A stretch of 44,015 bases of DNA, taken from Escherichia phage vB_VIPECOTPH05B. Where the stretch lies: sequence record PQ429080.1; one strand, given 5' to 3'. The notes below the pieces were generated by a model, which was not told the origin of the DNA, ran no database searches, and worked only from the letters and a program-made list of their open reading frames with translations. Positions 1 through 44,015 of this stretch are shown piece after piece. Every line of letters begins with the position of its first letter. The stretch's first letter is position 1. Made by a program: the position numbers and the translations under genes.

Positions 1-1857
1 TTATCTTCTTCCTCTATGTTGTTTACCTCTGCCCCGGCTCTGCAGCCGAGCAGCTACACCCCGAAGGCCCTTAGACACTTTGCTCTGTGCCCAATCCAAC
101 GGGTTCTCAATGAAGGCCCGAGCCATCTTCTCAGACTCACGCTCAGCCACTACTTTCTCGTCTTCCACCAGGTGCCCGTTCAGCGTAGCCACCATCATGG
201 CGATTGCGTCTGCTCGGTCATCCTTAGCCAGGCTACCGCGGTCGTACGTGATACCAGCCAACTGTGTGAACGCAGAGTACAGCCAACGTCTATCGCGGGA
301 GTACGCCATACAGGTACTGATATCGTCGTGAACCGCACGCTCATGCACCACCAGGCGGTGACGGCGAGTAACTGGGCTGATTGTGTCGATTATACGACGC
401 TCTTTCTGCGTGGAGTTGTTCAGGTCCCTTACACCGATACCGGCGAGACGTCGCTCCCGTAACCGGTTCAGGATAAGCATAGACACGGTGCCGTGCCCCA
501 TGTTGCTCTCCACCACCATATCCGGGATGTCTAACTCTACGCACAGGTCAATCAGTTTATCAATGTTCTCTTCGCTGATACCTCCTTGGAAGCCGCCTAC
601 GGAGAATAGGTGGATGTACGAGTTCGCAGCACCACCAGCAGCGTAGGACACTTCGTCTCCGCCACAACCAGCCGGGTCCACCACCAGCACCTTATGCTGG
701 TACGGCAGGTGCATATCCCCGTAGAATGCTGGGAAGTACATCTGCTGACCCATAATCCCCTCATGCTCGTGCTGGTACAGGTACCGGCGGTCTGCAATGT
801 AAGAGAACGTCTCGGGAGAGGAATCCTGACTGCCTGAGTAAACCAGCATATCCGAAAGCTTGATGCGTGTACGCATCTGGTCGGACAGGGTGGTATCGAG
901 CATGTACTGTAGCTGGAAGCCCTCCGGACCGAAGTCCAGCTCCTTCTCAATCAGTGCATCCTCATCATAGCGCCCAGTGTCTGTGCTCTCGCCTAGCGTC
1001 CCGTCGACGCCGAAGCCGGTGCGTTTATAGCCGCGCTCAATAAGCTCCAGTATATAAGGAGCAAGTGTACTTCCATATCGCTCTTCCATTTCAACAGATG
1101 GAATGCGCCCAGGCCACACGCGGACCTCAAAGCCACGTCCCGGCAGGGTTTTATAGATGCTGTCCTTGGTCTGCGGTGTGCCAAGGTACAGTATGTCCCC
1201 ATGCGTACAGATAGCTGCGAAGTCCTTCGAAATCATCAGCAGCTGCTCACGCTGGGTTTGCGTTAAGCCGTTCTTGGTGGTCTCGATATCGTCTGGAATC
1301 AGCAGGTCCGCACGCTTCCCCTGCAGGGATGCAGTGATACCTACACAGGCCACGCTGGCGGACTTATCCAGTGGTTTCAGGTCGCAGTTGACATCATAAC
1401 CTTCGAATGAAGTACGGTCCCCACGAGTAGGGTCAGCCTTCAAGTAGCACAGCAGTGGCCAGGTTTCCAACATACGAATGATTAGGTTCGCTACATCGGA
1501 CGCCTGCTTCTCTGCACCAGACACAATCAGAATACGGCAGGATTGGTCCTGGATAAGCCTCCAGACGGCATAGAGTGCAGCCAGTGTAGACTTAGCTTCA
1601 CCACGCTGTGCGGCCACCATGCGCTTCCTAGGGCCCTTCTGCATGTACTCTGCAATGTCGGCCTGCATGTCCGTCAGCGTAAAACCCAGGAATCGCATAC
1701 CGATGTACGCGAATTCCCGGAAGTCACTTAACGCAGCGGCCATCATCATCGCGATGTCCTCGCGCTCCTCTTTGGGAATACTGCGCGGATTCGCACTATA
1801 ACCAGTAAGTTTCTGGTTGAGCATGCGCAGTCTTCGCGCAGTCTTCACCGATACCAT
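1..1857 (-). CDS. Terminase large subunit (T7 gp19-like packaging ATPase/nuclease)
   Basis: 618 aa; ATPase-like N-terminal half and nuclease-like C-terminal half typical of T7-group large terminases; last gene of the structural block; stop codon (TAA) occupies window positions 3..1. Confidence 0.88.
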   Translation of the reverse strand: MVSVKTARRLRMLNQKLTGYSANPRSIPKEEREDIAMMMAAALSDFREFAYIGMRFLGFTLTDMQADIAEYMQKGPRKRMVAAQRGEAKSTLAALYAVWRLIQDQSCRILIVSGAEKQASDVANLIIRMLETWPLLCYLKADPTRGDRTSFEGYDVNCDLKPLDKSASVACVGITASLQGKRADLLIPDDIETTKNGLTQTQREQLLMISKDFAAICTHGDILYLGTPQTKDSIYKTLPGRGFEVRVWPGRIPSVEMEERYGSTLAPYILELIERGYKRTGFGVDGTLGESTDTGRYDEDALIEKELDFGPEGFQLQYMLDTTLSDQMRTRIKLSDMLVYSGSQDSSPETFSYIADRRYLYQHEHEGIMGQQMYFPAFYGDMHLPYQHKVLVVDPAGCGGDEVSYAAGGAANSYIHLFSVGGFQGGISEENIDKLIDLCVELDIPDMVVESNMGHGTVSMLILNRLRERRLAGIGVRDLNNSTQKERRIIDTISPVTRRHRLVVHERAVHDDISTCMAYSRDRRWLYSAFTQLAGITYDRGSLAKDDRADAIAMMVATLNGHLVEDEKVVAERESEKMARAFIENPLDWAQSKVSKGLRGVAARLQSRGRGKQHRGRR

Positions 1858-2159
1858 TAGACAATTCCTTCTAGTAAGTCCTCAGAGTCTGAACCACCAA
1901 CTTTATTTAGAATCTCTTGCTTACGCGCCTCTCTGCGCGCCGCCAGTTCGTCATCGAACTCGTCACGAAGGTCCTGCATCTCCTCGGAATCTGCATCCGC
2001 GGTAATGTCATTGTCCTTCAAGAACTTAGCGATAACTGATTTATCTGCGGCGGGGAGCGGCACCTCATCTTCCTTAGACTGCTTGATTTCTTCAATCAAG
2101 GCCTCGGTGAACATGCGGTGCAGCTCCGAGAGGCGACTGCGTTTAGCCGCCCCTGCCAT
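1857..2159 (-). CDS. Terminase small subunit (gp18-like)
   Basis: 100 aa, charged and helical, immediately upstream of the large terminase; its TAA stop overlaps the large-terminase ATG (TAATG). Assigned by position and size. Confidence 0.55.
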   Translation of the reverse strand: MAGAAKRSRLSELHRMFTEALIEEIKQSKEDEVPLPAADKSVIAKFLKDNDITADADSEEMQDLRDEFDDELAARREARKQEILNKVGGSDSEDLLEGIV

Positions 2160-2183
2160 AATTATACCTCGTGGTTGATGCTA

Positions 2184-4430
2184 CTACATTTTAACTTTTA
2201 CAAACCCGTTAGCGTCCCTATACAGCCGCCCAGCAACTGTCGGTACTGTGTCGGTCAGTGATGGGAACGATACGTCATCGTCTGCACTAAACAATCCACT
2301 GGCGCTTATGTTTGCAAATTGCACATCACCAGCATTTATGGAGAATTCAGGCATTGTCAAGTTCGCTCCTAACCTGTTAGTGGAGTACTGGGGTGACATC
2401 ACGAACAGGTGCTCGTTTGTGGGAATGCTGCCTGTGATGATAGTACCCACCCCGCTAACCCCCGATACATTCAAGTCACCCTGTATATTGATGATGTTGC
2501 GCCCCGCGCTGCCAACATAGTTTATAAACTTACACCCGTATACGTAGGCATTAAACGAGCAGTTTTTTACCTGAGAAGAGGCGTCAGTACCCAATTGCAG
2601 CGCGTGCACAGCCGTAGCTGGCGTACTGTTCATTGGCGCCCCAACAAATCCGTGGAACATGTTAGCATCGCTAGCCATAATAACAGCTGCGCCCGCTTGC
2701 CAGTTCGAATACACTCGGGTATTTATTACGGAGTTTCTAGCACCCTCAAAATACACCTGAGCGCTTGCTGCGCCCTCAAAATGGCAGTTGCTAATAAAGG
2801 TGTCGTAGCCTGCCACGTACAGCCCGTAGCGCATACGGTTACTGTATAGAGGTGTCACGTTGGCATCCCCGAAAGCCCACACATGCATCTGAGAGCCGCG
2901 AGTACCCCCACCACCACCATAACGGATACCATCATAGGTGTTGTGTGCTAGCAAACCTGCGCTACGCACCATCAAATGGTCTGATTGGTTGTCGGAAGAA
3001 CCACCAATAACTATACCATGTTGCCCAACCATATCTACTCGGATATCCGAGTACTTGCTTGGAGCCATGTATTTTATACTGGTATTACCCCTGCCCCCCA
3101 GGTTTACCCCCACGCCTCTGCAGTACCCAGCACGGATGCCTTTTAGATTTGTACCCGCCCCGTAAATCCGGAGGCACTCAGTATGCGACCGAGTATTTTC
3201 AGCGGTCCCATCCCAACCTCCCTCAATTATAAGGTCCTCTATGTAGATGGAATTCACCATAGCCGAGGGCACGTTTACCGTAAGATAATCTCCGGCTGGC
3301 GCGTTGCGCGACTTAACTATAGCATCATCCCAACTGCTTAAAGCCAAAACCCTAGAGATGCCTTCCACCCCAACAACTTTTACGCTGTCAGGTAAAATCC
3401 AGGGGCCGGACGTGGCGTAGGTTTTGGGCCCCAGATAGATTGGGAGGGACAGGCTCGCAGCGTATTCCGCAGCCGAGTTTAGGGCTGCAATGTCATCTGT
3501 GACCCCATCCCCGACGGCCCCAAACTGTTCCGGAGTTATAAACCACAGTACCAGCTTAGGTATAATTGAACCCGCTTTATAGTCTAGCGCGGACTGTACT
3601 GTGCCGCCCTGCGAAGTTCCAATGTAACCGGCACCAGACGAGCTGCTCAGCATGGCGAGTATATTGGCTAACGCAGACGTATCTGCCTCTGTGTCTATGC
3701 CAATAGTACAATCCACCAAGGTGCCCGCCGGTAGTACTGAGGTGAATTTAATAGACCCATCAATGACATCGTAAGAGTACCCAGCTGTCTGGGTTACACC
3801 ATTTACGCGAACCTTAGCCTTAGTGAAAGGCATGCCGGGAGTTACGGTATCCGTAGCAGTTGTCAGTACAGTCCACCAAGGGAAGCTGTTAGTGTTTGCA
3901 TTGAAGTGAGTCTGCTCCAGATTCACTATACGCGTATCCAGTTCAGCGTCAGCAGCCTCACGAGCAGCTGCCTCAGCATCTACTCGCACATCCAGCCGGG
4001 CATCCCCGGCATCGACGTATTGCTTGTTCGCAGCGTCCTGTGCATCTACTGGGTCGCCCAGGTTCGTGATGCGGTAACGATGCATATTAATGTCGCCATA
4101 GAAGCCTTCGATATAGCGGCCCTCAACCAGCTCTTGAGCCAGGTGCAGGAGCTGCATATTCTGGGTATCTACGTTTACTTCGATGAACGGAGCACCACTA
4201 GCAAATTCAATGTAGAGGTACTCTCGTTCAGTCTTACGAATGAGCAGTACCTCCGTCTCTGCAGATAGCGCCGAATTCAGTCGAATATTGGTGGAGCTGG
4301 TCCAAGTAAAGGCGGTGGTCTCGACGCCATCCAAATAAACGTGAATATAGGACTTATCCAGGTACTCAATATCGCACTGGATATCCTGAGTACCTGCAGG
4401 CTTTACCGACTCTTGCCAGCTGAATGCCAT
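2184..4430 (-). CDS. Tail fiber / tailspike protein (T7 gp17-like N-terminal adaptor plus beta-helix-like C-terminal domain)
   Basis: 748 aa; N-terminal about 150 aa resembles the conserved gp17 tail-attachment domain; the remainder is Gly/Asn/Ser/Thr-rich in a way typical of right-handed beta-helix receptor-binding or depolymerase domains. Confidence 0.75.
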   Translation of the reverse strand: MAFSWQESVKPAGTQDIQCDIEYLDKSYIHVYLDGVETTAFTWTSSTNIRLNSALSAETEVLLIRKTEREYLYIEFASGAPFIEVNVDTQNMQLLHLAQELVEGRYIEGFYGDINMHRYRITNLGDPVDAQDAANKQYVDAGDARLDVRVDAEAAAREAADAELDTRIVNLEQTHFNANTNSFPWWTVLTTATDTVTPGMPFTKAKVRVNGVTQTAGYSYDVIDGSIKFTSVLPAGTLVDCTIGIDTEADTSALANILAMLSSSSGAGYIGTSQGGTVQSALDYKAGSIIPKLVLWFITPEQFGAVGDGVTDDIAALNSAAEYAASLSLPIYLGPKTYATSGPWILPDSVKVVGVEGISRVLALSSWDDAIVKSRNAPAGDYLTVNVPSAMVNSIYIEDLIIEGGWDGTAENTRSHTECLRIYGAGTNLKGIRAGYCRGVGVNLGGRGNTSIKYMAPSKYSDIRVDMVGQHGIVIGGSSDNQSDHLMVRSAGLLAHNTYDGIRYGGGGGTRGSQMHVWAFGDANVTPLYSNRMRYGLYVAGYDTFISNCHFEGAASAQVYFEGARNSVINTRVYSNWQAGAAVIMASDANMFHGFVGAPMNSTPATAVHALQLGTDASSQVKNCSFNAYVYGCKFINYVGSAGRNIINIQGDLNVSGVSGVGTIITGSIPTNEHLFVMSPQYSTNRLGANLTMPEFSINAGDVQFANISASGLFSADDDVSFPSLTDTVPTVAGRLYRDANGFVKVKM

Positions 4431-4431
4431 A

Positions 4432-7400
4432 TTAATCGTCTCCGAAGTTATTGATGATAGCTCGCGTAGGTGCGAATTCCTGTATTAGCGGCACCTGCTT
4501 AGTGAAGGTCTTTATATCCATATTACCGGTAGCCAGGTCCTGTACGGCCCCGAGCAACCCTGTGACGTAACCCATAGATGCCAACGAGTGACGAGGGGAA
4601 TCTCCCAGGAAGATATCCTGCAGTAAGGATACCCCGCCGATGGCACTCATACCCATTACGGACTCGCTGATGAGTTTCTGAGTGTCTACGTCCTTACCAT
4701 CCATGCCATGCTTAGCCATAGTAGCCAGCAGCATTAACGGGAACTGGTACGCCATAATATGGGCTACGCCAATCCACCCAGCGTCGTTCAGCTCTCTGCG
4801 CAGAATCTTGTTAGTGGCTGCCAGTGCGAAGCTCTGGTACCCTACAATGACTTTGCCGATAGGATTGAACTGTGCAAAGTGCGAGGTCTCTCCAGTACGA
4901 ATCTGCTGTACCAGGTAGTCCATCATACGCGTCCCCACAACCTCAACTTGCATCTGCAGGTCCGGCTGGAACATAGCGCCCGGGTTAGCCTTGTTGGCAG
5001 CGATAGCGCGGTCAGCAACATCGCGAGTAAGCCCGAAACGCTCCAGACGCTTAAACGCCTCAGCATCGCCCTTGAACATCTGAGTAAGCTCGTCCGCCAC
5101 AATACCGGAGTTCAGGTTCACCTGTAGCCGGTGCACCATGCTCATACCGTTGACGTGACGGGCAGCCTGCCCAACGTTCTGGGTGACGTTGAACCAGGAG
5201 GCCTGACGGGTCAGGTCCAGGTTATCGTCAGCGTACGTATTCAGCCAGCGGAAGCGCATCTCCTTCTGAATATTACCCCGCAGCACGGTATCTAGACGAG
5301 CAGCCATATCCGGGGTCTTGATAGCCACGGCACCTTCCTTGAACCAAGGCTGGTCACGCATACTGCGCAGCACTCTAGCCATACCGAACTCCTTCATAGC
5401 CAAAGCAGTATCGGTCAGCTGATACAGGCCGGAGTTCTTAAGCATAGTGGCGTTTGCCATATTCCCAGCTGCACGCAGCAAGTCCGGAAGCTGCCCAGCG
5501 TCAGCAGGTGCCCCACCCAGGATAAAGTCGATGGTGTCATTGACGGTCTTCTCCCACTTGGCGGAATCCGCTAGTACGTGCTTAGACTCATCAATCATCT
5601 TGGCGAGCTGTCCCAGGTCCTGTACGCCTGCATAGGCCATACCTACACGTCCAGACATACGGTTAGTGTACCCGTGCATAACCTTGGCTACGTCAGTATC
5701 CATCAGGTCCTGCATGCGCATGCTCTTACCGTTCACCAGATACTCTTTATCCATGTTGAACCGAGTACGCTGGCGCAAGTTCCGCGCAGGGGATGTGCTG
5801 CCGGATTCGCGTACGTTACCAGCCAGGAAGCTCTGGATTGCAGACTCTTCTACACCGGCGCTGCGCATAGCCATAACGACCTCGTCGTTACCCATGCCGT
5901 TAATCAGCTGCTTCCACATAGGGCCAGCCTGCCCAGCACGGCCATTGTAGATGCCGTCAACCATCTCCTTAGCAACACGCTGCACTACCTCTGACTCCAT
6001 GCTCGGGTACACATCCCGCAGGGCGGACCGGAACAGGGCGCGGTAGTCATCCAGGGTATTGCCTTGTGCGATACCTTGGCGCATCTTGTCGTAGCTGTAC
6101 TGGCGCGGGAAGTAGTAGTCGGATTTAACCAACGCACCATCATCCACTAAACCGGCATTGAGCATATGCTCGTGCCACTTGCTAGCCCAGCCAGAGCGGC
6201 GATAGGCGTCAACCAGTGGAGCAATCTCTGCGTCCGGCACCGGCACAGCGCGGCCGTTTACGTCAGCGCTGTAGGCAGCATCCAGGTACTTGCTCAGGCG
6301 GTCTTCCAGCGCAGCCCGCTCAGCGCGGAAATTACTACGATGGAAGAAGCGTGAGAGTACACCTACACCCTTATCCTTCAACGCGCCCAGGATAGCATCT
6401 TCCACTACGCTGGCGCGAGCATCCATCTCCAAAGTTAGGTTACGCTTGTAGTCTACCACTGACGGGCGACGGCCGCCTACTGCGGACGCATCCGACACTA
6501 GCAGTTTAGCCAAGTCTTCGTTGCCTTGGGCGATATTATCGTACAGGGCAAACATAGTGGAGAGCTTCTTCTTAGCGCCGTCCAGCATAGCTTGGGCGCG
6601 CTTAGCCTCATTGAGGGTGGTGCTGCCCGCCAGGTCCTGGAAGGCTTCGCTACGGAAGCTCTGGGCTTGGTCTGCATAATCCTTAGCTGTCCACTTAACT
6701 GCGTCCTCATACGCATCCAGGACATCTTCCAAGGCAGAGCCTTTTGCCTTGATGCCCAGAGCGTTCATGATGTACTCACCCAGTTGGCGGAGCATACTCT
6801 TACCGGTGGGAGACTGCGTACGTGCCAGGTGCTCAACCCACTCAGGGCTGTCGCCTAAGCCTGCCAGCATCTCATGCACATTACTTGCGTAATACCGCAT
6901 ACGCGGTGTCAGGGTGGAGTCAGCCGCAATAACAGCGCGCACTTCCTCCAGGCGTTTAGCAATCTCGGGATTACTGTCAATGGCGCGCGCAGTAGCAGCA
7001 TGAATCAGTTCGTGCACGGCCACCTTGCTTGTATCTGCATCCATAGCGCGCAGCGCATCGCCGACTGTAGTCCAGGTGCTGCCGTTAGCTTGCTTAGGCG
7101 CACGCAGGGATATCTCTCCCCGCTTAGCTAAATCTTGTTGTGCGTAAGTGTAGCGGCTACGGTTTGCGGAGCCTGCTACCAGTTTAAAATCAATGTCATT
7201 TACAGCATCGCCCAGCGTGTACAGAATAGCCTTCTGTCCTGCTGTCAAGTGCTCAGACTTCTTCAAGAACTGAACTACGTGCTGTGCTTTCATGTTCACG
7301 GAGGCGGTATTGTTTCTCGATACTTGGATGCTTTCATCCAGTGTCTTAGTGAGAATTTCCTCTCCCTCTCCTACTCCGGTAACATTAGCATCCCTCGCTG

Positions 7401-40461: not shown

Positions 40462-40494
40462 GCAAAAAGGGTAAGCAGACCCCTAAAGGTCTGC
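40462..40494 (-). terminator. Possible terminator-like hairpin at the 3' end of the HNH gene
   Basis: GCAGACC-6 nt loop-GGTCTGC stem overlapping the HNH stop codon, followed on the minus transcript by UUACCCUUUUUG. Confidence 0.3.
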
Positions 40495-40869
40495 GTGCAG
40501 TAAGCTATTGTAATCCCCATAGGTTACGTCGAACTCTCGCCAGTTAGTGTCGTAGTCCGGACTAGCCAATAACTCCTCTTTTGTGAAACATCTCCCCTCC
40601 TTAATCTGCGCTAGGTGAATGGCGCGGTGAGTGTCGGCGCTAACCAATATCAGGTTATCAAAGGCGCAGTTAAGACGGTTACTGTCACAGTGATGTACAT
40701 GGTAGCCAGAGCCGTAGCTAGTGATACCCAGTGCATCCATAACCACGGCTCTATGCAGCGCCATAGTCCTACGGTCCTTTTTACCGTTCTTACGTATACA
40801 CGCTGGACCAGCACCGTTAATCACTGGATAGCCCTCTTTATCAACCACAATCTTAAATGTTCTAGCCAC
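40483..40869 (-). CDS. HNH endonuclease (third HNH gene in the window)
   Basis: 128 aa; HVHHCDSNRLNCAFDNLILVSADTHRAIH motif; apparent GTG start with TAAGGAG 8 nt upstream; flanked by the two longest ORF-free stretches. Confidence 0.7.
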   Translation of the reverse strand: MARTFKIVVDKEGYPVINGAGPACIRKNGKKDRRTMALHRAVVMDALGITSYGSGYHVHHCDSNRLNCAFDNLILVSADTHRAIHLAQIKEGRCFTKEELLASPDYDTNWREFDVTYGDYNSLLHADL

Positions 40870-40879
40870 AACAATAACT

Positions 40880-41694
40880 CCTTACATAGTGATGAGTAGC
40901 GTAACCATAGCGACGATATCCCGGAGGGATAGGAGCGGAGGTTACAAGATTCTAGGGATAGCAGCCTACTGCGTAGGCACAGGGCTATCCTAGTGAATAC
41001 CTAGTAGGGACTAGTAAGGACTAGTATTAAGTAGTGTGTATATAGTGCCCTAAAACCCTCCTACTCCGGTTACTTCATTTCATAATAGCTTTCGAATGAA
41101 AGTAAGAGCAAAGGGATAGCATTGGGATAGCGCTGGGATAGCGGCAGAGTGTGGATGTGCGCCCTAGTGGGGAGCGCGCAGCGTAGCATATAATTAGCAC
41201 AATGTAAAGCCCCAAGGATAGCCAGTGGATAGCCTAGTGCATACTAGGGATAGCACTAGGGATAGCACCACAGCGCACTAGCTGGCCCACTAGGCAGGCA
41301 CAAAATAAGCAAGGCAGAGCGCACCCCTATGGCCCACAGGGAGCGCACAGGGAGCGCCTAGTGAACGCACAGGGATAGCACCAGTGCCCCATAGAGCGCA
41401 CAGGAAGCCCTACAAGGCACGCACAGGCAAAGCCATAGGGTAGCACTAGCAATAGCCCTAGCGCAGCGCAGAGAGCCACTGAGGCCCACTGGTGCGCCCT
41501 AGCAGGCCCACCCAGTGCCCCCCCCCTAAATTGGCGCTAGGCACCCCCTATGGGGGCAATTGGGCGCGCTGAGGGTGAGGGACCCTGCCGCGTGAGTATA
41601 ATAAATTTCGGGTTCAGGTATAGACGTGCACCCGGATAGCCCCAGATAGCCCCACATAGACGCCCAGTGCTTACTCTAGTACTTACCCTAGCAC
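40880..41694. repeat. ORF-free repeat-rich region: at least 10 copies of GGATAGC plus CACAGGG/CACTAGG motifs, a C9 homopolymer and short tandem repeats; probable genome-terminus region
   Basis: No ORF of 60 aa or more on either strand across about 800 bp; GGATAGC at about 40956, 41114, 41125, 41136, 41216, 41227, 41248, 41259, 41373, 41634 (first three tandem copies spaced 11 bp); C-run at 41518..41526. Confidence 0.6.
41059..41080 (-). promoter_or_regulatory. Conserved element AAATGAAGTAACCGGAGTAGGA, copy 1 (candidate phage-RNAP promoter)
   Basis: 21 of 22 nt identical to the copy after the RNAP gene; lies in the repeat region upstream of the HNH gene. Confidence 0.35.
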
Positions 41695-41880
41695 TTATTC
41701 TGCGATAGCCCCGGAGGCCCGCAGGGACGCTAACAGGGCCGCCAGAGTAACCGCCAGTGCCTCTGCCGTAGTATCGGTAGCATCAGCTACAGCAACCCCT
41801 TGCAGTACCCCGCCGATAGAGTCCGTAGTAGCTTCCGGTAATACCGGTGCCTTTGCTTGTACAAGCTCAACCAGTGCCAT
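41695..41880 (-). CDS. Hypothetical small protein (61 aa) at the distal end of the lysis cassette
   Basis: ATG 1 nt after the endolysin stop; Ala/Val/Thr-rich with a hydrophobic C-terminal stretch; no lipobox. Confidence 0.4.
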   Translation of the reverse strand: MALVELVQAKAPVLPEATTDSIGGVLQGVAVADATDTTAEALAVTLAALLASLRASGAIAE

Positions 41881-41881
41881 A

Positions 41882-42490
41882 TTAACCTCCTACCCCTTTA
41901 AGCGCAGCGATTGCTGCATTCACATTCTTGTACTGGTTCCCAATAGCTTTGCTCTGCCACTGCCTGCGCTCCCATAGGCCCCAGCACACTTTATTGCGCT
42001 GCCCGTTAACGTATTGGGAACAGTCGAAGGTCCAGCGGTTGCCGCCCTTGTACACCCAGCCAGTGCCGGGGGACTTCTGCTGGTACTTGCTAATATAGCG
42101 CCAGTCCAGCACAGCCTTCGCGGCCGATGCATAATCAAGGCTTTTGAGGTGGCGCTTCACGGAGCTTCCGTTGAAACCCGCCACGCCTACGTTGTACGTG
42201 AAGTCCAGGGCACCTAGCAGGGCCACGTCAGAGAGCTGCATAGGAAGCCCGTCAAGAGCTTTTGCATGCTCCCCTGCTGATTGTATCAGTTGCTTCTGAC
42301 AATCGCTCAGCGTGGCTCTCTGGCCCATTTTGACGCCCTTTGTCTCACCGTAGCAGATAGTCGGGACACCGGCGCTATCCTTATAGGCAGTAAGGCTCAA
42401 CCCCTCGTTATGCTGCACCACCCCGGTAATAGCGCCGCCAAGCATAGTGGCCCCCGTAAGGGCCGCCACAACCTTAGTCCTTAAACTCAT
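41882..42490 (-). CDS. SAR endolysin, T4-lysozyme-type muramidase (GH24-like)
   Basis: 202 aa; weakly hydrophobic Gly/Ala-rich N-terminus (KVVAALTGATMLGGAITGVV) followed by the catalytic E-x8-D-x5-T pattern (NEGLSLTAYKDSAGVPT); start overlaps the holin 3' end. Confidence 0.85.
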   Translation of the reverse strand: MSLRTKVVAALTGATMLGGAITGVVQHNEGLSLTAYKDSAGVPTICYGETKGVKMGQRATLSDCQKQLIQSAGEHAKALDGLPMQLSDVALLGALDFTYNVGVAGFNGSSVKRHLKSLDYASAAKAVLDWRYISKYQQKSPGTGWVYKGGNRWTFDCSQYVNGQRNKVCWGLWERRQWQSKAIGNQYKNVNAAIAALKGVGG

Positions 42491-42725
42491 ATTTAATAGT
42501 CCCCTTACGTGCCTGCTCCTCTAGGAGCTTGAATGTACGCCGCTTGTAATACGCATTCCACGCCAGGGTTAGCACTGCGCACACCGTCGCAGTGATGAAG
42601 CTGATAGTGCTCCAGTTCCAGCTCATTACTTCTGCCACCCAACCTCCAGATACAGCCGCTGTAGTGGCTGTAGTCCCTGCCTTGGTGATTACGTCAGTAG
42701 ACACTACATCCGAAACCTTAATCAT
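42474..42725 (-). CDS. Holin (pinholin-like)
   Basis: About 83 aa from first ATG; weakly hydrophobic first segment, strong TM helix (WSTISFITATVCAVLTLAW), charged C-terminal tail; immediately upstream of and overlapping the SAR endolysin. Confidence 0.55.
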   Translation of the reverse strand: MIKVSDVVSTDVITKAGTTATTAAVSGGWVAEVMSWNWSTISFITATVCAVLTLAWNAYYKRRTFKLLEEQARKGTIKYEFKD

Positions 42726-42733
42726 GTACACCT

Positions 42734-43099
42734 CTATACAATTATCAGTGACTGTGAGAACACAGGCATCGGATAGTTAGTATCTTCCGCCGGGTAGAAG
42801 CCGTACCAGGGGCACCATATATCTCGGTTAGGGTACAGTATCACCCAGTGACTGTGACTTGTACCGCGTTCGCATCTAGCCCTCGTTATACGAGTAGCAT
42901 TCGATTTCGACCACCACACCCTGCCCAGACTCACCCCGCAGGTCCTCGCCACTTTAATTAAATCGCTAAAGGTGCTGGCATCTGTAGGACGTTTAAGGGT
43001 GCTTAGCCATGCGGCCTCAATATCCTCATAAGGGATATCTAAAAGGGATGACAGCGCGGCCGCGCCGCAATCGTCGTCCTTACGTTGTAGCGTCTGCAT
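42734..43099 (-). CDS. Small cysteine-peptidase-like protein (papain/C39-like Cys...His...Asp arrangement) in the lysis cassette
   Basis: About 121 aa from ATG with AAGGAA 8 nt upstream; N-terminal DDDCGAAALSSLL and downstream HSHWVILYPNRD resemble the Cys and His/Asp motifs of C39-type peptidases. Motif-level call only. Confidence 0.45.
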   Translation of the reverse strand: MQTLQRKDDDCGAAALSSLLDIPYEDIEAAWLSTLKRPTDASTFSDLIKVARTCGVSLGRVWWSKSNATRITRARCERGTSHSHWVILYPNRDIWCPWYGFYPAEDTNYPMPVFSQSLIIV

Positions 43100-43499
43100 C
43101 TTCTCGTTCCTTACTTTTACCAAACACTCTGCGCATCACCAGGATGACCACTAGGAAGATAAGTGGAATACTGGCCCCGGCTAATCCCGCCAGGATTAGA
43201 CTGTAGCTGTCGTTGTTTACTACCTGTAAACGGTCAGCCTGGATAGTACCAGTACTAATAGTCTGGACCTGCTTCTTACTAGAAGTGTCCAAAGTCCCAA
43301 CTGTAGAATCGGTTACGTCAGTCTTATTGGTGGTGCTGGCATCCACCTTGTTATTCAAGCCAACGGTTTGTTTGGTGTTCTCGGCACCAACCTGAGCAGA
43401 TACATCCGGCTTAGAACCAACTAAGCCGGTGAGTGCAGAGGTCGCCGAGCAACCAGTCAGAGTAACCGCGAGCAGTAACCCAGCGACCAGTTTACGCAT
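43080..43499 (-). CDS. Candidate unimolecular spanin: outer-membrane lipoprotein with C-terminal transmembrane helix
   Basis: 139 aa; lipoprotein signal with lipobox LTGC and Ser at +2; Ser/Thr-rich middle of about 80 aa; C-terminal TM helix (LILAGLAGASIPLIFLVVILVM) followed by RRVFGKSKERE; no Rz/Rz1 pair seen elsewhere. Confidence 0.5.
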   Translation of the reverse strand: MRKLVAGLLLAVTLTGCSATSALTGLVGSKPDVSAQVGAENTKQTVGLNNKVDASTTNKTDVTDSTVGTLDTSSKKQVQTISTGTIQADRLQVVNNDSYSLILAGLAGASIPLIFLVVILVMRRVFGKSKEREDADATT

Positions 43500-43681
43500 T
43501 AGCTTGCCGCCTTCACTGCGGCTACCGCGGCTTCAAGCGCAGCAATCTTGGTATCGAAGTCTGCGCCAGTCTGGGCAACGTTCTGCGGCTGCGTAAGGAT
43601 AGCATACAGGTCCTTACCGAGAATGTTCAGCTGGCGCAGCAGCTCCTGCTGTTGCGCTGAGGTTGCTTTTGCAATTGCCAT
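43499..43681 (-). CDS. Hypothetical small protein (60 aa), helical
   Basis: ATG with AAGGGG 8 nt upstream; TAA stop overlaps the ATG of the lipoprotein gene (TAATG). Confidence 0.4.
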   Translation of the reverse strand: MAIAKATSAQQQELLRQLNILGKDLYAILTQPQNVAQTGADFDTKIAALEAAVAAVKAAS

Positions 43682-43692
43682 AGTATTACCCC

Positions 43693-44015
43693 TTACTCAA
43701 TAGAGATTGCTGTGATTACACCGTCTTCTACAGTGATCGTCGCTGCTACGGTAGCAGTAGCTCCCGCCTCCCGGGCGGTGGTAAACGTAATGGGTACGGT
43801 TACTTCTGCGCCATTACCTACAACCACTACAGCGCCACCATCAGAGGCGCCTGCAGCAGCCAGTGCAGCTACTGCTACAGCCCCTGCTGCATCTACGTCC
43901 GGACCAAGAGTATCTAGCGGGCCGGTATCATGTGCCAAGGTTGTTGCTTTATCAAGTGCTACCGCTGCATTACGTACTGCCTGGCGCTGTGCCAGTGTTG
44001 CTTCTGCAAATGCCA
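43693..44015 (-). CDS. Hypothetical Ala-rich protein, 5' end runs off the window edge; likely starts at an ATG formed by position 1 plus 44015..44014
   Basis: Reading frame is open to position 44015; under circular wrap the codon (1, 44015, 44014) on the minus strand is ATG, in frame, overlapping the large-terminase stop as TAATG, giving a 107-aa protein. Confidence 0.5.
   Translation of the reverse strand, partial: AFAEATLAQRQAVRNAAVALDKATTLAHDTGPLDTLGPDVDAAGAVAVAALAAAGASDGGAVVVVGNGAEVTVPITFTTAREAGATATVAATITVEDGVITAISIE

Follow-up and report, generated by a model that had tools for sequence, protein, structure and literature searches.

A stand-alone C39-type peptidase gene within the Drulisvirus lysis cassette of Escherichia phage vB_VIPECOTPH05B

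Escherichia phage vB_VIPECOTPH05B (sequence record PQ429080.1), whose 44,015-nucleotide sequence was analysed as a whole and is called the window below, carries at positions 41,695 to 44,015 a lysis gene cluster that an earlier note on this DNA had described as a non-canonical cassette. In our analysis, this region is very probably the standard, late-expressed lysis cassette of Drulisvirus (KP34-like) phages, in which the functional holin/endolysin/spanin set is intact, and the sole new aspect is that this variant of a known cassette carries an inserted rare stand-alone C39-type peptidase, encoded by the gene denoted here D. That the product of gene D is an active cytoplasmic protease which is not required for lysis appears probable, and the two parts taken together, a standard cassette and a protease dispensable for lysis, make up a reading that we consider quite likely.

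The Drulisvirus lysis cassette

Over its 2321 base pairs (bp), the cassette region shows 100% identity to five records of Klebsiella phages (vB_VIPKPNMC07C plus siblings, 44,014-44,016 bp), all of which are classified as Autographiviridae, Slopekvirinae, Drulisvirus. Altogether, 252 records match the region, almost all of them from Klebsiella phages and many with 86-90% identity over part of the length. The window is a complete Drulisvirus genome in reverse complement, so that all genes are on the minus strand. The identical record PQ505478 annotates the large terminase subunit, an Rz-like spanin, a holin as well as an endolysin. The features of the region, with protein lengths in amino acids (aa), are the following open reading frames (ORFs) and one inserted block:

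1..1857, minus strand: large terminase subunit TerL (context), a 618-aa ORF annotated as such in PQ505478
43693..44015 plus window position 1 (the A of the ATG), minus strand: gene A, 107 aa, an ORF that wraps around the window end
43499..43681, minus strand: gene B, 60 aa, matching phrog_7375
43080..43499, minus strand: gene C, 139 aa, predicted unimolecular spanin (u-spanin), from LPAM_1, a lipobox, a transmembrane (TM) segment and phrog_1804
42734..43099, minus strand: gene D, 121 aa, encoding a stand-alone cysteine peptidase of C39 type (papain fold) and of minimal size, predicted to be cytoplasmic, with a weak match to Pfam Peptidase_C39
42723..43096, minus strand: inserted block of 374 bp, delimited by alignment to the D-less phage VLC1
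42474..42725, minus strand: gene E, 83 aa, predicted class II holin (pinholin of the phage 21 type), from PF04971 and phrog_20
41882..42490, minus strand: gene F, 202 aa, predicted signal-anchor-release (SAR) endolysin, a lysozyme (GH24) similar in type to R of phage 21, from PF00959 and alignment to 3HDE
41695..41880, minus strand: gene G, 61 aa, a short accessory ORF rich in Ala, with a C-terminal match to PF11133 and a match to phrog_20838

The genes are tightly packed, with spacings along TerL-A-B-C-D-E-F-G of -1, +11, -1, -20, +8, -17 and +1 nucleotides (nt). The TerL stop codon TAA (positions 3..1) and the ATG of gene A overlap as TAATG across the wrap of the window, and a Shine-Dalgarno-like motif precedes each of the seven starts, which together with the packing is consistent with translational coupling. 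A scan of the cassette for promoters and terminators returned counts no higher than expected from shuffled sequences. These are real genes rather than chance ORFs, given that C, E and F match curated lysis families and that the ratio of non-synonymous to synonymous substitution rates (dN/dS) in gene D is 0.07. The minus-strand ORFs behind the terminase, including the wrap, and the coupling had been accurately described in the earlier note, except that it counted six coupled genes where there are seven (A to G).

This gene order is not new. Eriksson et al. (2015; PMC4411677) presented a u-spanin, a holin of 83 aa interpreted as a pinholin, and a SAR endolysin as the defining order of 'Kp34likevirus', set against the holin-endolysin-Rz-Rz1 order of phiKMV, and the same spanin-holin-endolysin cluster is formed by g54-g56 of phage fHe-Kpn01 (PMC7291057). 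The cassette in the window shares with those of KP34-like phages the genus, the position behind the large terminase, the order and the protein sizes (spanin about 134-139, holin 83 and endolysin 202 aa), and is about 89% identical at the DNA level to many KP34-like members. It differs from the KP34 type by an extra 121-aa gene between spanin and holin, by a spanin tail that is five codons longer, and by the 61-aa ORF behind the endolysin, a slot that holds a depolymerase gene in KP34-type phages. With phiKMV it has in common the late-region position behind the terminase genes and the pinholin/SAR-endolysin strategy (PMC4411677), whereas the phiKMV Rz/Rz1 pair lies downstream of the endolysin and the window phage has a single u-spanin upstream; the sequence similarity to the phiKMV cassette has been reported to be low (PMC4411677). 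No Rz/Rz1 pair was found in the cassette, where the endolysin is followed by the 61-aa ORF and then by non-coding DNA. Thus, the earlier proposal that a different gene complement replaces holin-endolysin-Rz-Rz1 is correct with respect to the missing pair, but the replacement is the known u-spanin solution (phrog_1804) and not a novelty. The cassette is non-canonical only relative to phiKMV, the arrangement has already been published and the phage is already in GenBank; the cassette itself brings nothing new.

The product of gene C combines the two hallmarks of a u-spanin. The N-terminus, MRKLVAGLLLAVTLTGC, contains the lipobox LTGC with Cys17 as the lipidation site and Ser, rather than Asp, at position +2, which is compatible with outer-membrane sorting (Pfam LPAM_1, 20.2 bits with a cutoff of 20), and a C-terminal TM segment (residues 101-119, LILAGLAGASIPLIFLVVI, mean Kyte-Doolittle (KD) hydropathy 2.65) is followed by a basic tail. 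Cys17 is the sole cysteine, so there is no periplasmic one. The protein matches phrog_1804 ('Rz-like spanin') with an E-value of 6e-50, and a tblastn search retrieved 1167 phage records, including T1-like phages in which the counterpart is annotated as a u-spanin, at 40-50% identity. KP34 has been placed in the T1 gp11 u-spanin family, which nearly always pairs with a pinholin and a SAR endolysin and comprises u-spanins without periplasmic cysteines (Kongari et al., 2018; PMC6139136). Gene C is thus predicted to encode an ordinary member of the T1 gp11 u-spanin family, with which it shares the outer-membrane lipoprotein signal, the C-terminal TM domain and the pinholin/SAR endolysin pairing; it is just 40-50% identical to the spanins of T1-like siphoviruses, and its function here is a prediction from sequence.

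The product of gene E matches the P21 holin S family (PF04971, Phage_holin_2_1) at 26.9 bits, above the cutoff of 26 (E-value 4.9e-6), and the phrog_20 holins with an E-value of 2e-17. The first of its two TM domains (TMD1) is weakly hydrophobic (KD 0.75, 68% G/A/S/T), the second (TMD2) is strongly so (KD 1.55), and the C-terminal tail, KRRTFKLLEEQARKGTIKYEFKD, is basic. Upstream, a single further in-frame start codon is present, a GTG located two codons ahead of the ATG; this GTG lies inside the Shine-Dalgarno sequence GAGGTG and would add no charge. Gene E is predicted to encode a phage-21-type pinholin, the small-hole behaviour being deduced from its pairing with a SAR endolysin.

The product of gene F matches the GH24 phage lysozymes (PF00959, E-value 2e-21) and contains the catalytic triad E29-x8-D38-x5-T44. 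In its N-terminus, R4 and K6 precede the 19-residue segment VVAALTGATMLGGAITGVV, which consists of G/A/S/T to 58% and ends four residues before E29. The best solved relative is the phage 21 lysozyme (3HDE), with an alignment that starts at residue 2 and thus includes the N-terminal segment. On these features, gene F is taken to encode an R21-like SAR endolysin, for which export and release are predicted. Compared with S21/R21 of phage 21, the holin belongs to the P21 holin S family and the endolysin aligns to R21 from residue 2 with the same E-x8-D-x5-T pattern; the differences are that gene E is without a clear dual-start (antiholin) motif, that the endolysin has a C-terminal extension of about 50-60 aa past the part alignable to R21, and that the spanin comes first in the gene order. 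The lipoprotein with a C-terminal TM helix, the pinholin-like holin and the SAR endolysin proposed earlier are all borne out by these matches, signals and segments; the lipoprotein matches an ordinary u-spanin family, and the term non-canonical was an overstatement.

By homology, lysis would most likely follow the phage 21/T1 paradigm. The SAR endolysin would be exported by the host Sec system and tethered to the inner membrane in an inactive state through its N-terminal segment rich in Gly and Ala, while the pinholin builds up in the same membrane until its weak TMD1 exits the bilayer and TMD2 oligomerises into small holes, with collapse of the proton-motive force at a programmed time. Depolarisation would then free and activate the endolysin (E29/D38/T44), which would degrade the murein, and finally the u-spanin, lipid-anchored in the outer membrane via Cys17 and inserted in the inner membrane by its C-terminal TM segment, would fuse or disrupt the two membranes.

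Gene D, an inserted C39-type peptidase gene

Gene D is the feature that sets this cassette apart. Its product matches Pfam Peptidase_C39 (PF03412) with an E-value of 5e-4 and 20.4 bits, below the cutoff of 22, and five of six relatives match the same family at E-values of 0.01 or lower, the best being 6.9e-6. Among the NCBIfam models, all matches were to FapD-like C39 proteins and sub-threshold; PHROGs contains no family for gene D, and PADLOC matched neither gene D nor its relatives. A direct phmmer search against the PDB sequences produced just a chance antibody match; a profile search with the gene D family detected PCAT1 and ComA at the marginal E-value of about 0.02. An AlphaFold model built from five sequences (pLDDT 83, pTM 0.80) retrieved PCAT1 in a Foldseek search (E-value 3.5e-5, TM-score 0.64) and has the papain-like C39 fold. 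By both structure and sequence, the protein is closest to ComA, PCAT1 and LahT, which are bacteriocin-leader peptidases, and the cysteine-peptidase-like character that had been noticed earlier is upheld.

The gene D family is small and rare. A profile search of 1.84 billion representative proteins yielded 25 relatives, 11 of them below an E-value of 1e-10, and a word-indexed search of 5.8 billion proteins yielded about 26 family clusters, including one protein from a Halomonas genome named by NCBI as a C39 domain protein. A locus search with an alignment of closer sequences returned just two IMG/VR loci, both from the same phage group. All members are stand-alone proteins, of about 100-170 aa among the relatives from the profile search and of 100-140 aa among the clusters, and were seen solely in phages, prophages and phage-like contigs, so that gene D points to a small, rare, stand-alone C39-type family.

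Across 15 members that are 30-48% identical, the residues Q5, D10-C11-G12, H84-W85, C96-P97 and G100 are invariant. Of these, Q5, C11 (within DDCG) and H84 align with the PCAT1 motifs VRQYDLTDCG and HFVVIY, which hold the catalytic Cys and His. The third catalytic residue of C39 enzymes, the Asp of an Asp-Pro pair, is not found in the gene D family, which has the invariant Cys96-Pro97 instead; this placement was made by motif comparison, as the hidden Markov model (HMM) alignments end before that point. For comparison, the C39 toxin domain StbD-CT is reported in a preprint to require its Asp275. The gene D product contains no hydrophobic segment, hence no signal peptide, SAR or TM domain, and is accordingly predicted to be cytoplasmic. 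It is not the N-terminal domain of an ABC exporter, since the family is stand-alone and no transporter was found nearby in the contexts examined. The protein differs from the C39 peptidases ComA, PCAT1 and LahT and the toxin StbD-CT in that neither an ABC transporter nor a toxin-delivery domain is attached to it. Its substrate would most likely be a cytoplasmic protein, of the host or the phage, that it cuts at small residues in a Gly-Gly-like site.

A named counterpart is ORF66 of Pantoea phage Nufs112 (Autographiviridae), annotated as a 'C39 family peptidase' (OK570185; PMC9915841), which is 39% identical over the full length and has the same invariant residues. Like gene D, ORF66 is unique relative to the closest relatives of its phage; it differs in location, at the right genome end behind a tailspike gene and away from the lysis genes of that phage.

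The position of gene D in the window can be traced to a single site. In a typical Drulisvirus, VLC1, the spanin gene leads straight to the holin gene, with overlapping stop and start codons, and most of the related phages likewise have nothing between the two genes. The ATG of gene D begins at the second nt of a spanin GAT codon, which is the exact site of the VLC1 holin ATG. The additional 374-bp block comprises gene D from codon 2 on, a new Shine-Dalgarno sequence and a new holin ATG, with an ATG at both borders, and the new GAGGTG-N4-ATG restores the holin start 374 bp further on. Read from this alignment, the block is an insertion precisely at the ancestral holin start codon. As the spanin frame now runs into the 5' end of gene D (43080-43099, minus strand), the cytoplasmic tail of the spanin is lengthened by five codons and ends in ...KSKEREDADATT in the window phage, versus ...KKGQQDD in VLC1. 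A tightly coupled lysis operon can thus take up a foreign gene at the holin start codon without loss of the holin.

Among 50,697 phage records, gene D is encoded only in the five near-identical records and in Pantoea phage Nufs112, and it is missing from about 245 related phage records. A further Drulisvirus contig (L006) contains a 93%-identical copy at the same site. The two Drulisvirus copies differ by 35 synonymous and 12 non-synonymous substitutions, and the resulting dN/dS of 0.07 indicates a gene maintained under purifying selection. We also observed that between the two D-carrying lineages (window 42474-43099 against L006 217-842), dS is 0.62 in gene D versus 0.24 in the adjacent holin gene, which suggests a mosaic history of this short stretch.

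Gene D in relation to lysis and possible host targets

The contexts of the gene D homologues are diverse. In one phage group, the homologue is the first gene of a rightward, apparently early operon behind an intergenic region of about 800 bp; others are located in replication modules, behind a helicase gene. Nucleotide-metabolism modules are a further setting: in a phiKMV-like podovirus, the homologue is found between genes for a HAD phosphatase and a dGTPase-like protein, upstream of the RNA polymerase gene, and in a Halomonas prophage it lies immediately upstream of terS, near the holin region. No partner gene that might encode a substrate or immunity protein is common to the homologues across these contexts; the conserved neighbour in two loci (L009 and L010) was rejected as a candidate because it reflects the synteny of two related phages, and its motifs read as those of a putative VRR-NUC-like nuclease. 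Given these varied contexts and the absence from about 245 related phages, gene D behaves as a position-independent accessory gene, and we read its product as a cytoplasmic protease with an accessory role rather than as part of the core lysis machinery.

Several points weigh against this interpretation. The Pfam score below the cutoff and the Cys in place of the catalytic Asp leave catalytic competence less than certain, and every lysis step outlined above is predicted from homology. Moreover, gene D sits inside the cassette, overlaps the spanin gene by 20 nt and is followed, 8 nt after its stop codon, by the holin start; a second, diverged Drulisvirus retains the gene at the same place, and in the Halomonas prophage, too, the copy has a holin close by.

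The layout of the cassette is an argument for gene D as a lysis regulator or auxiliary that would, for example, process the pinholin at its cytoplasmic N-terminus, the tail of the spanin or the pre-protein of the SAR endolysin, or tune the dosage of the holin and so the timing of lysis. The gene lies between spanin and holin, the holin depends on the new Shine-Dalgarno sequence right after the gene D stop, so that dosage or timing might be affected, the second Drulisvirus lineage has the gene at the same site, the Halomonas prophage copy is located between the holin region and terS, and Gly-Gly pairs are present in TMD1 of the holin and in the SAR segment. We nevertheless consider such a role unlikely, because about 245 related phages lyse without gene D and most of the homologues are found in early regions, in replication modules or at genome ends, away from lysis genes. 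The Gly-Gly pairs, for their part, lie inside membrane-inserting segments, are typical of SAR and pinholin domains and are shared by the D-less phages; cleavage at these sites was set aside as a candidate activity since the motifs are generic.

A second cell-wall hydrolase, that is, a peptidoglycan endo- or isopeptidase complementing the lysozyme, would also fit the location within the lysis cassette. Precedents for this would be the C39-like/C71 pseudomurein endoisopeptidases of archaeal viruses and the N5 domain of mycobacteriophage LysA, for which 3ERV is the HHpred match. This appears very improbable for a protein that has no signal peptide, SAR or TM segment, that matches best to the bacteriocin-leader peptidases ComA, PCAT1 and LahT, and whose homologues are mostly found outside lysis modules. 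Furthermore, according to established phage 21 biology, pinholins are not expected to release folded cytoplasmic proteins.

The replacement of the canonical Asp by Cys96, the Pfam score under the cutoff and a length below that of the ComA and PCAT1 peptidase domains could alternatively indicate a catalytically dead C39-like domain (CLD), comparable to that of HlyB, which would serve as a binding module or persist as a decaying passenger gene. Known CLDs lose the nucleophilic Cys, whereas Gln5, Cys11 and His84 are all invariant in the 15 sequences despite identities of only 30-48%, and the dN/dS of 0.07 excludes decay, which makes an inactive protein quite unlikely.

Under the preferred reading of gene D as an accessory cytoplasmic protease, a host-directed role has a precedent. 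The preprint reports that StbD-CT, a C39 domain in free form, is active in the cytosol of enterobacteria, where it cuts a Gly-Gly site in GyrB and ParE; by analogy, this is a precedent for a similar role of gene D and not evidence for one here. Our tentative proposal, which we put forward as a possibility rather than an expectation, is that gene D founds a family of minimal stand-alone C39-type proteases with an invariant Gln/Cys/His/Cys signature that would act in the host cytoplasm on one particular host protein, cleaving it behind a Gly-Gly-like site; in this phage, the wiring into the late operon would time cleavage with assembly and lysis. The target might then belong to a defence system, for instance a ubiquitin-like conjugate (Bil or type II CBASS), or be an essential host enzyme in the manner of GyrB/ParE. 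If true, this would amount to a new class of phage proteases for host takeover or counter-defence, possibly useful as Gly-Gly-specific tools. For phage-therapy genomics, the practical consequence is that the annotation of gene D should read unknown cytoplasmic protease and should not place it among the lysis genes.

In two loci with an early-operon homologue of gene D (L005, positions 6491-6730, and L007, positions 5387-5665), the next gene encodes a small lipoprotein-like protein with a signal ending in ..IGSC. This protein terminates in ...YNGG(S/A)K, that is, with a Gly-Gly pair two residues from the end, which may be a coincidence or mark a candidate substrate.

Genes A, B and G and the flanking DNA

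Genes A, B and G have none of the features of lysis proteins. Gene A encodes a low-complexity, Ala/Gly/Val-rich protein that was found in 19 phage records only; it has no Pfam match and in PHROGs only a weak one, to phrog_9732, and it is not similar to the 'head fiber' gene of Nufs112. A single-sequence AlphaFold2 model, of low confidence (pLDDT 52), consists of a helix followed by beta strands. Gene B encodes a small Drulisvirus protein matching phrog_7375 (E-value 3e-38), a conserved family of unknown function, and shows no similarity to gene G. The earlier note described A and B as two small helical proteins; for gene A, an all-helical protein is not what this low-confidence model shows. 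The slot of gene A differs in other Drulisviruses and is occupied, for example, by the 124-aa g52 in fHe-Kpn01. In particle preparations of that phage, g52 and g53 (60 aa, the counterpart of gene B by position) were detected by liquid chromatography-tandem mass spectrometry; the spanin and the endolysin were detected as well, so this is no proof of a structural role.

The predicted 61-aa protein behind the endolysin is indeed encoded at 41695..41880 (minus strand), by gene G, which is present in only some Drulisviruses. It matches the phi29-type head-fibre family PF11133 over the last 53 positions only (E-value 8e-6), as well as phrog_20838, and it is annotated as a 'head fiber protein' only by way of that C-terminal match. 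The slot behind the endolysin is variable among Drulisviruses: in L006, it is filled by a 600-aa gene (1437-3239), positioned like the gene of the KP34p57-type depolymerase. The idea that gene G is left over from such a downstream depolymerase gene was dismissed, as it is not similar to the 600-aa gene.

Beyond gene G, about 800 bp of non-coding DNA (window 40900-41690) separate the cassette from the early genes. Short direct repeats, degenerate and of a GGGATAGC-type motif, fill this stretch densely, and it includes a run of 8-9 G near 41530. Because the record is permuted to start at TerL, the stretch probably represents the terminal repeat of the linear genome together with the regulatory region at its left end. 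The first gene past it (40483-40869, minus strand) encodes a 128-aa HNH endonuclease and is annotated so in the identical GenBank record.

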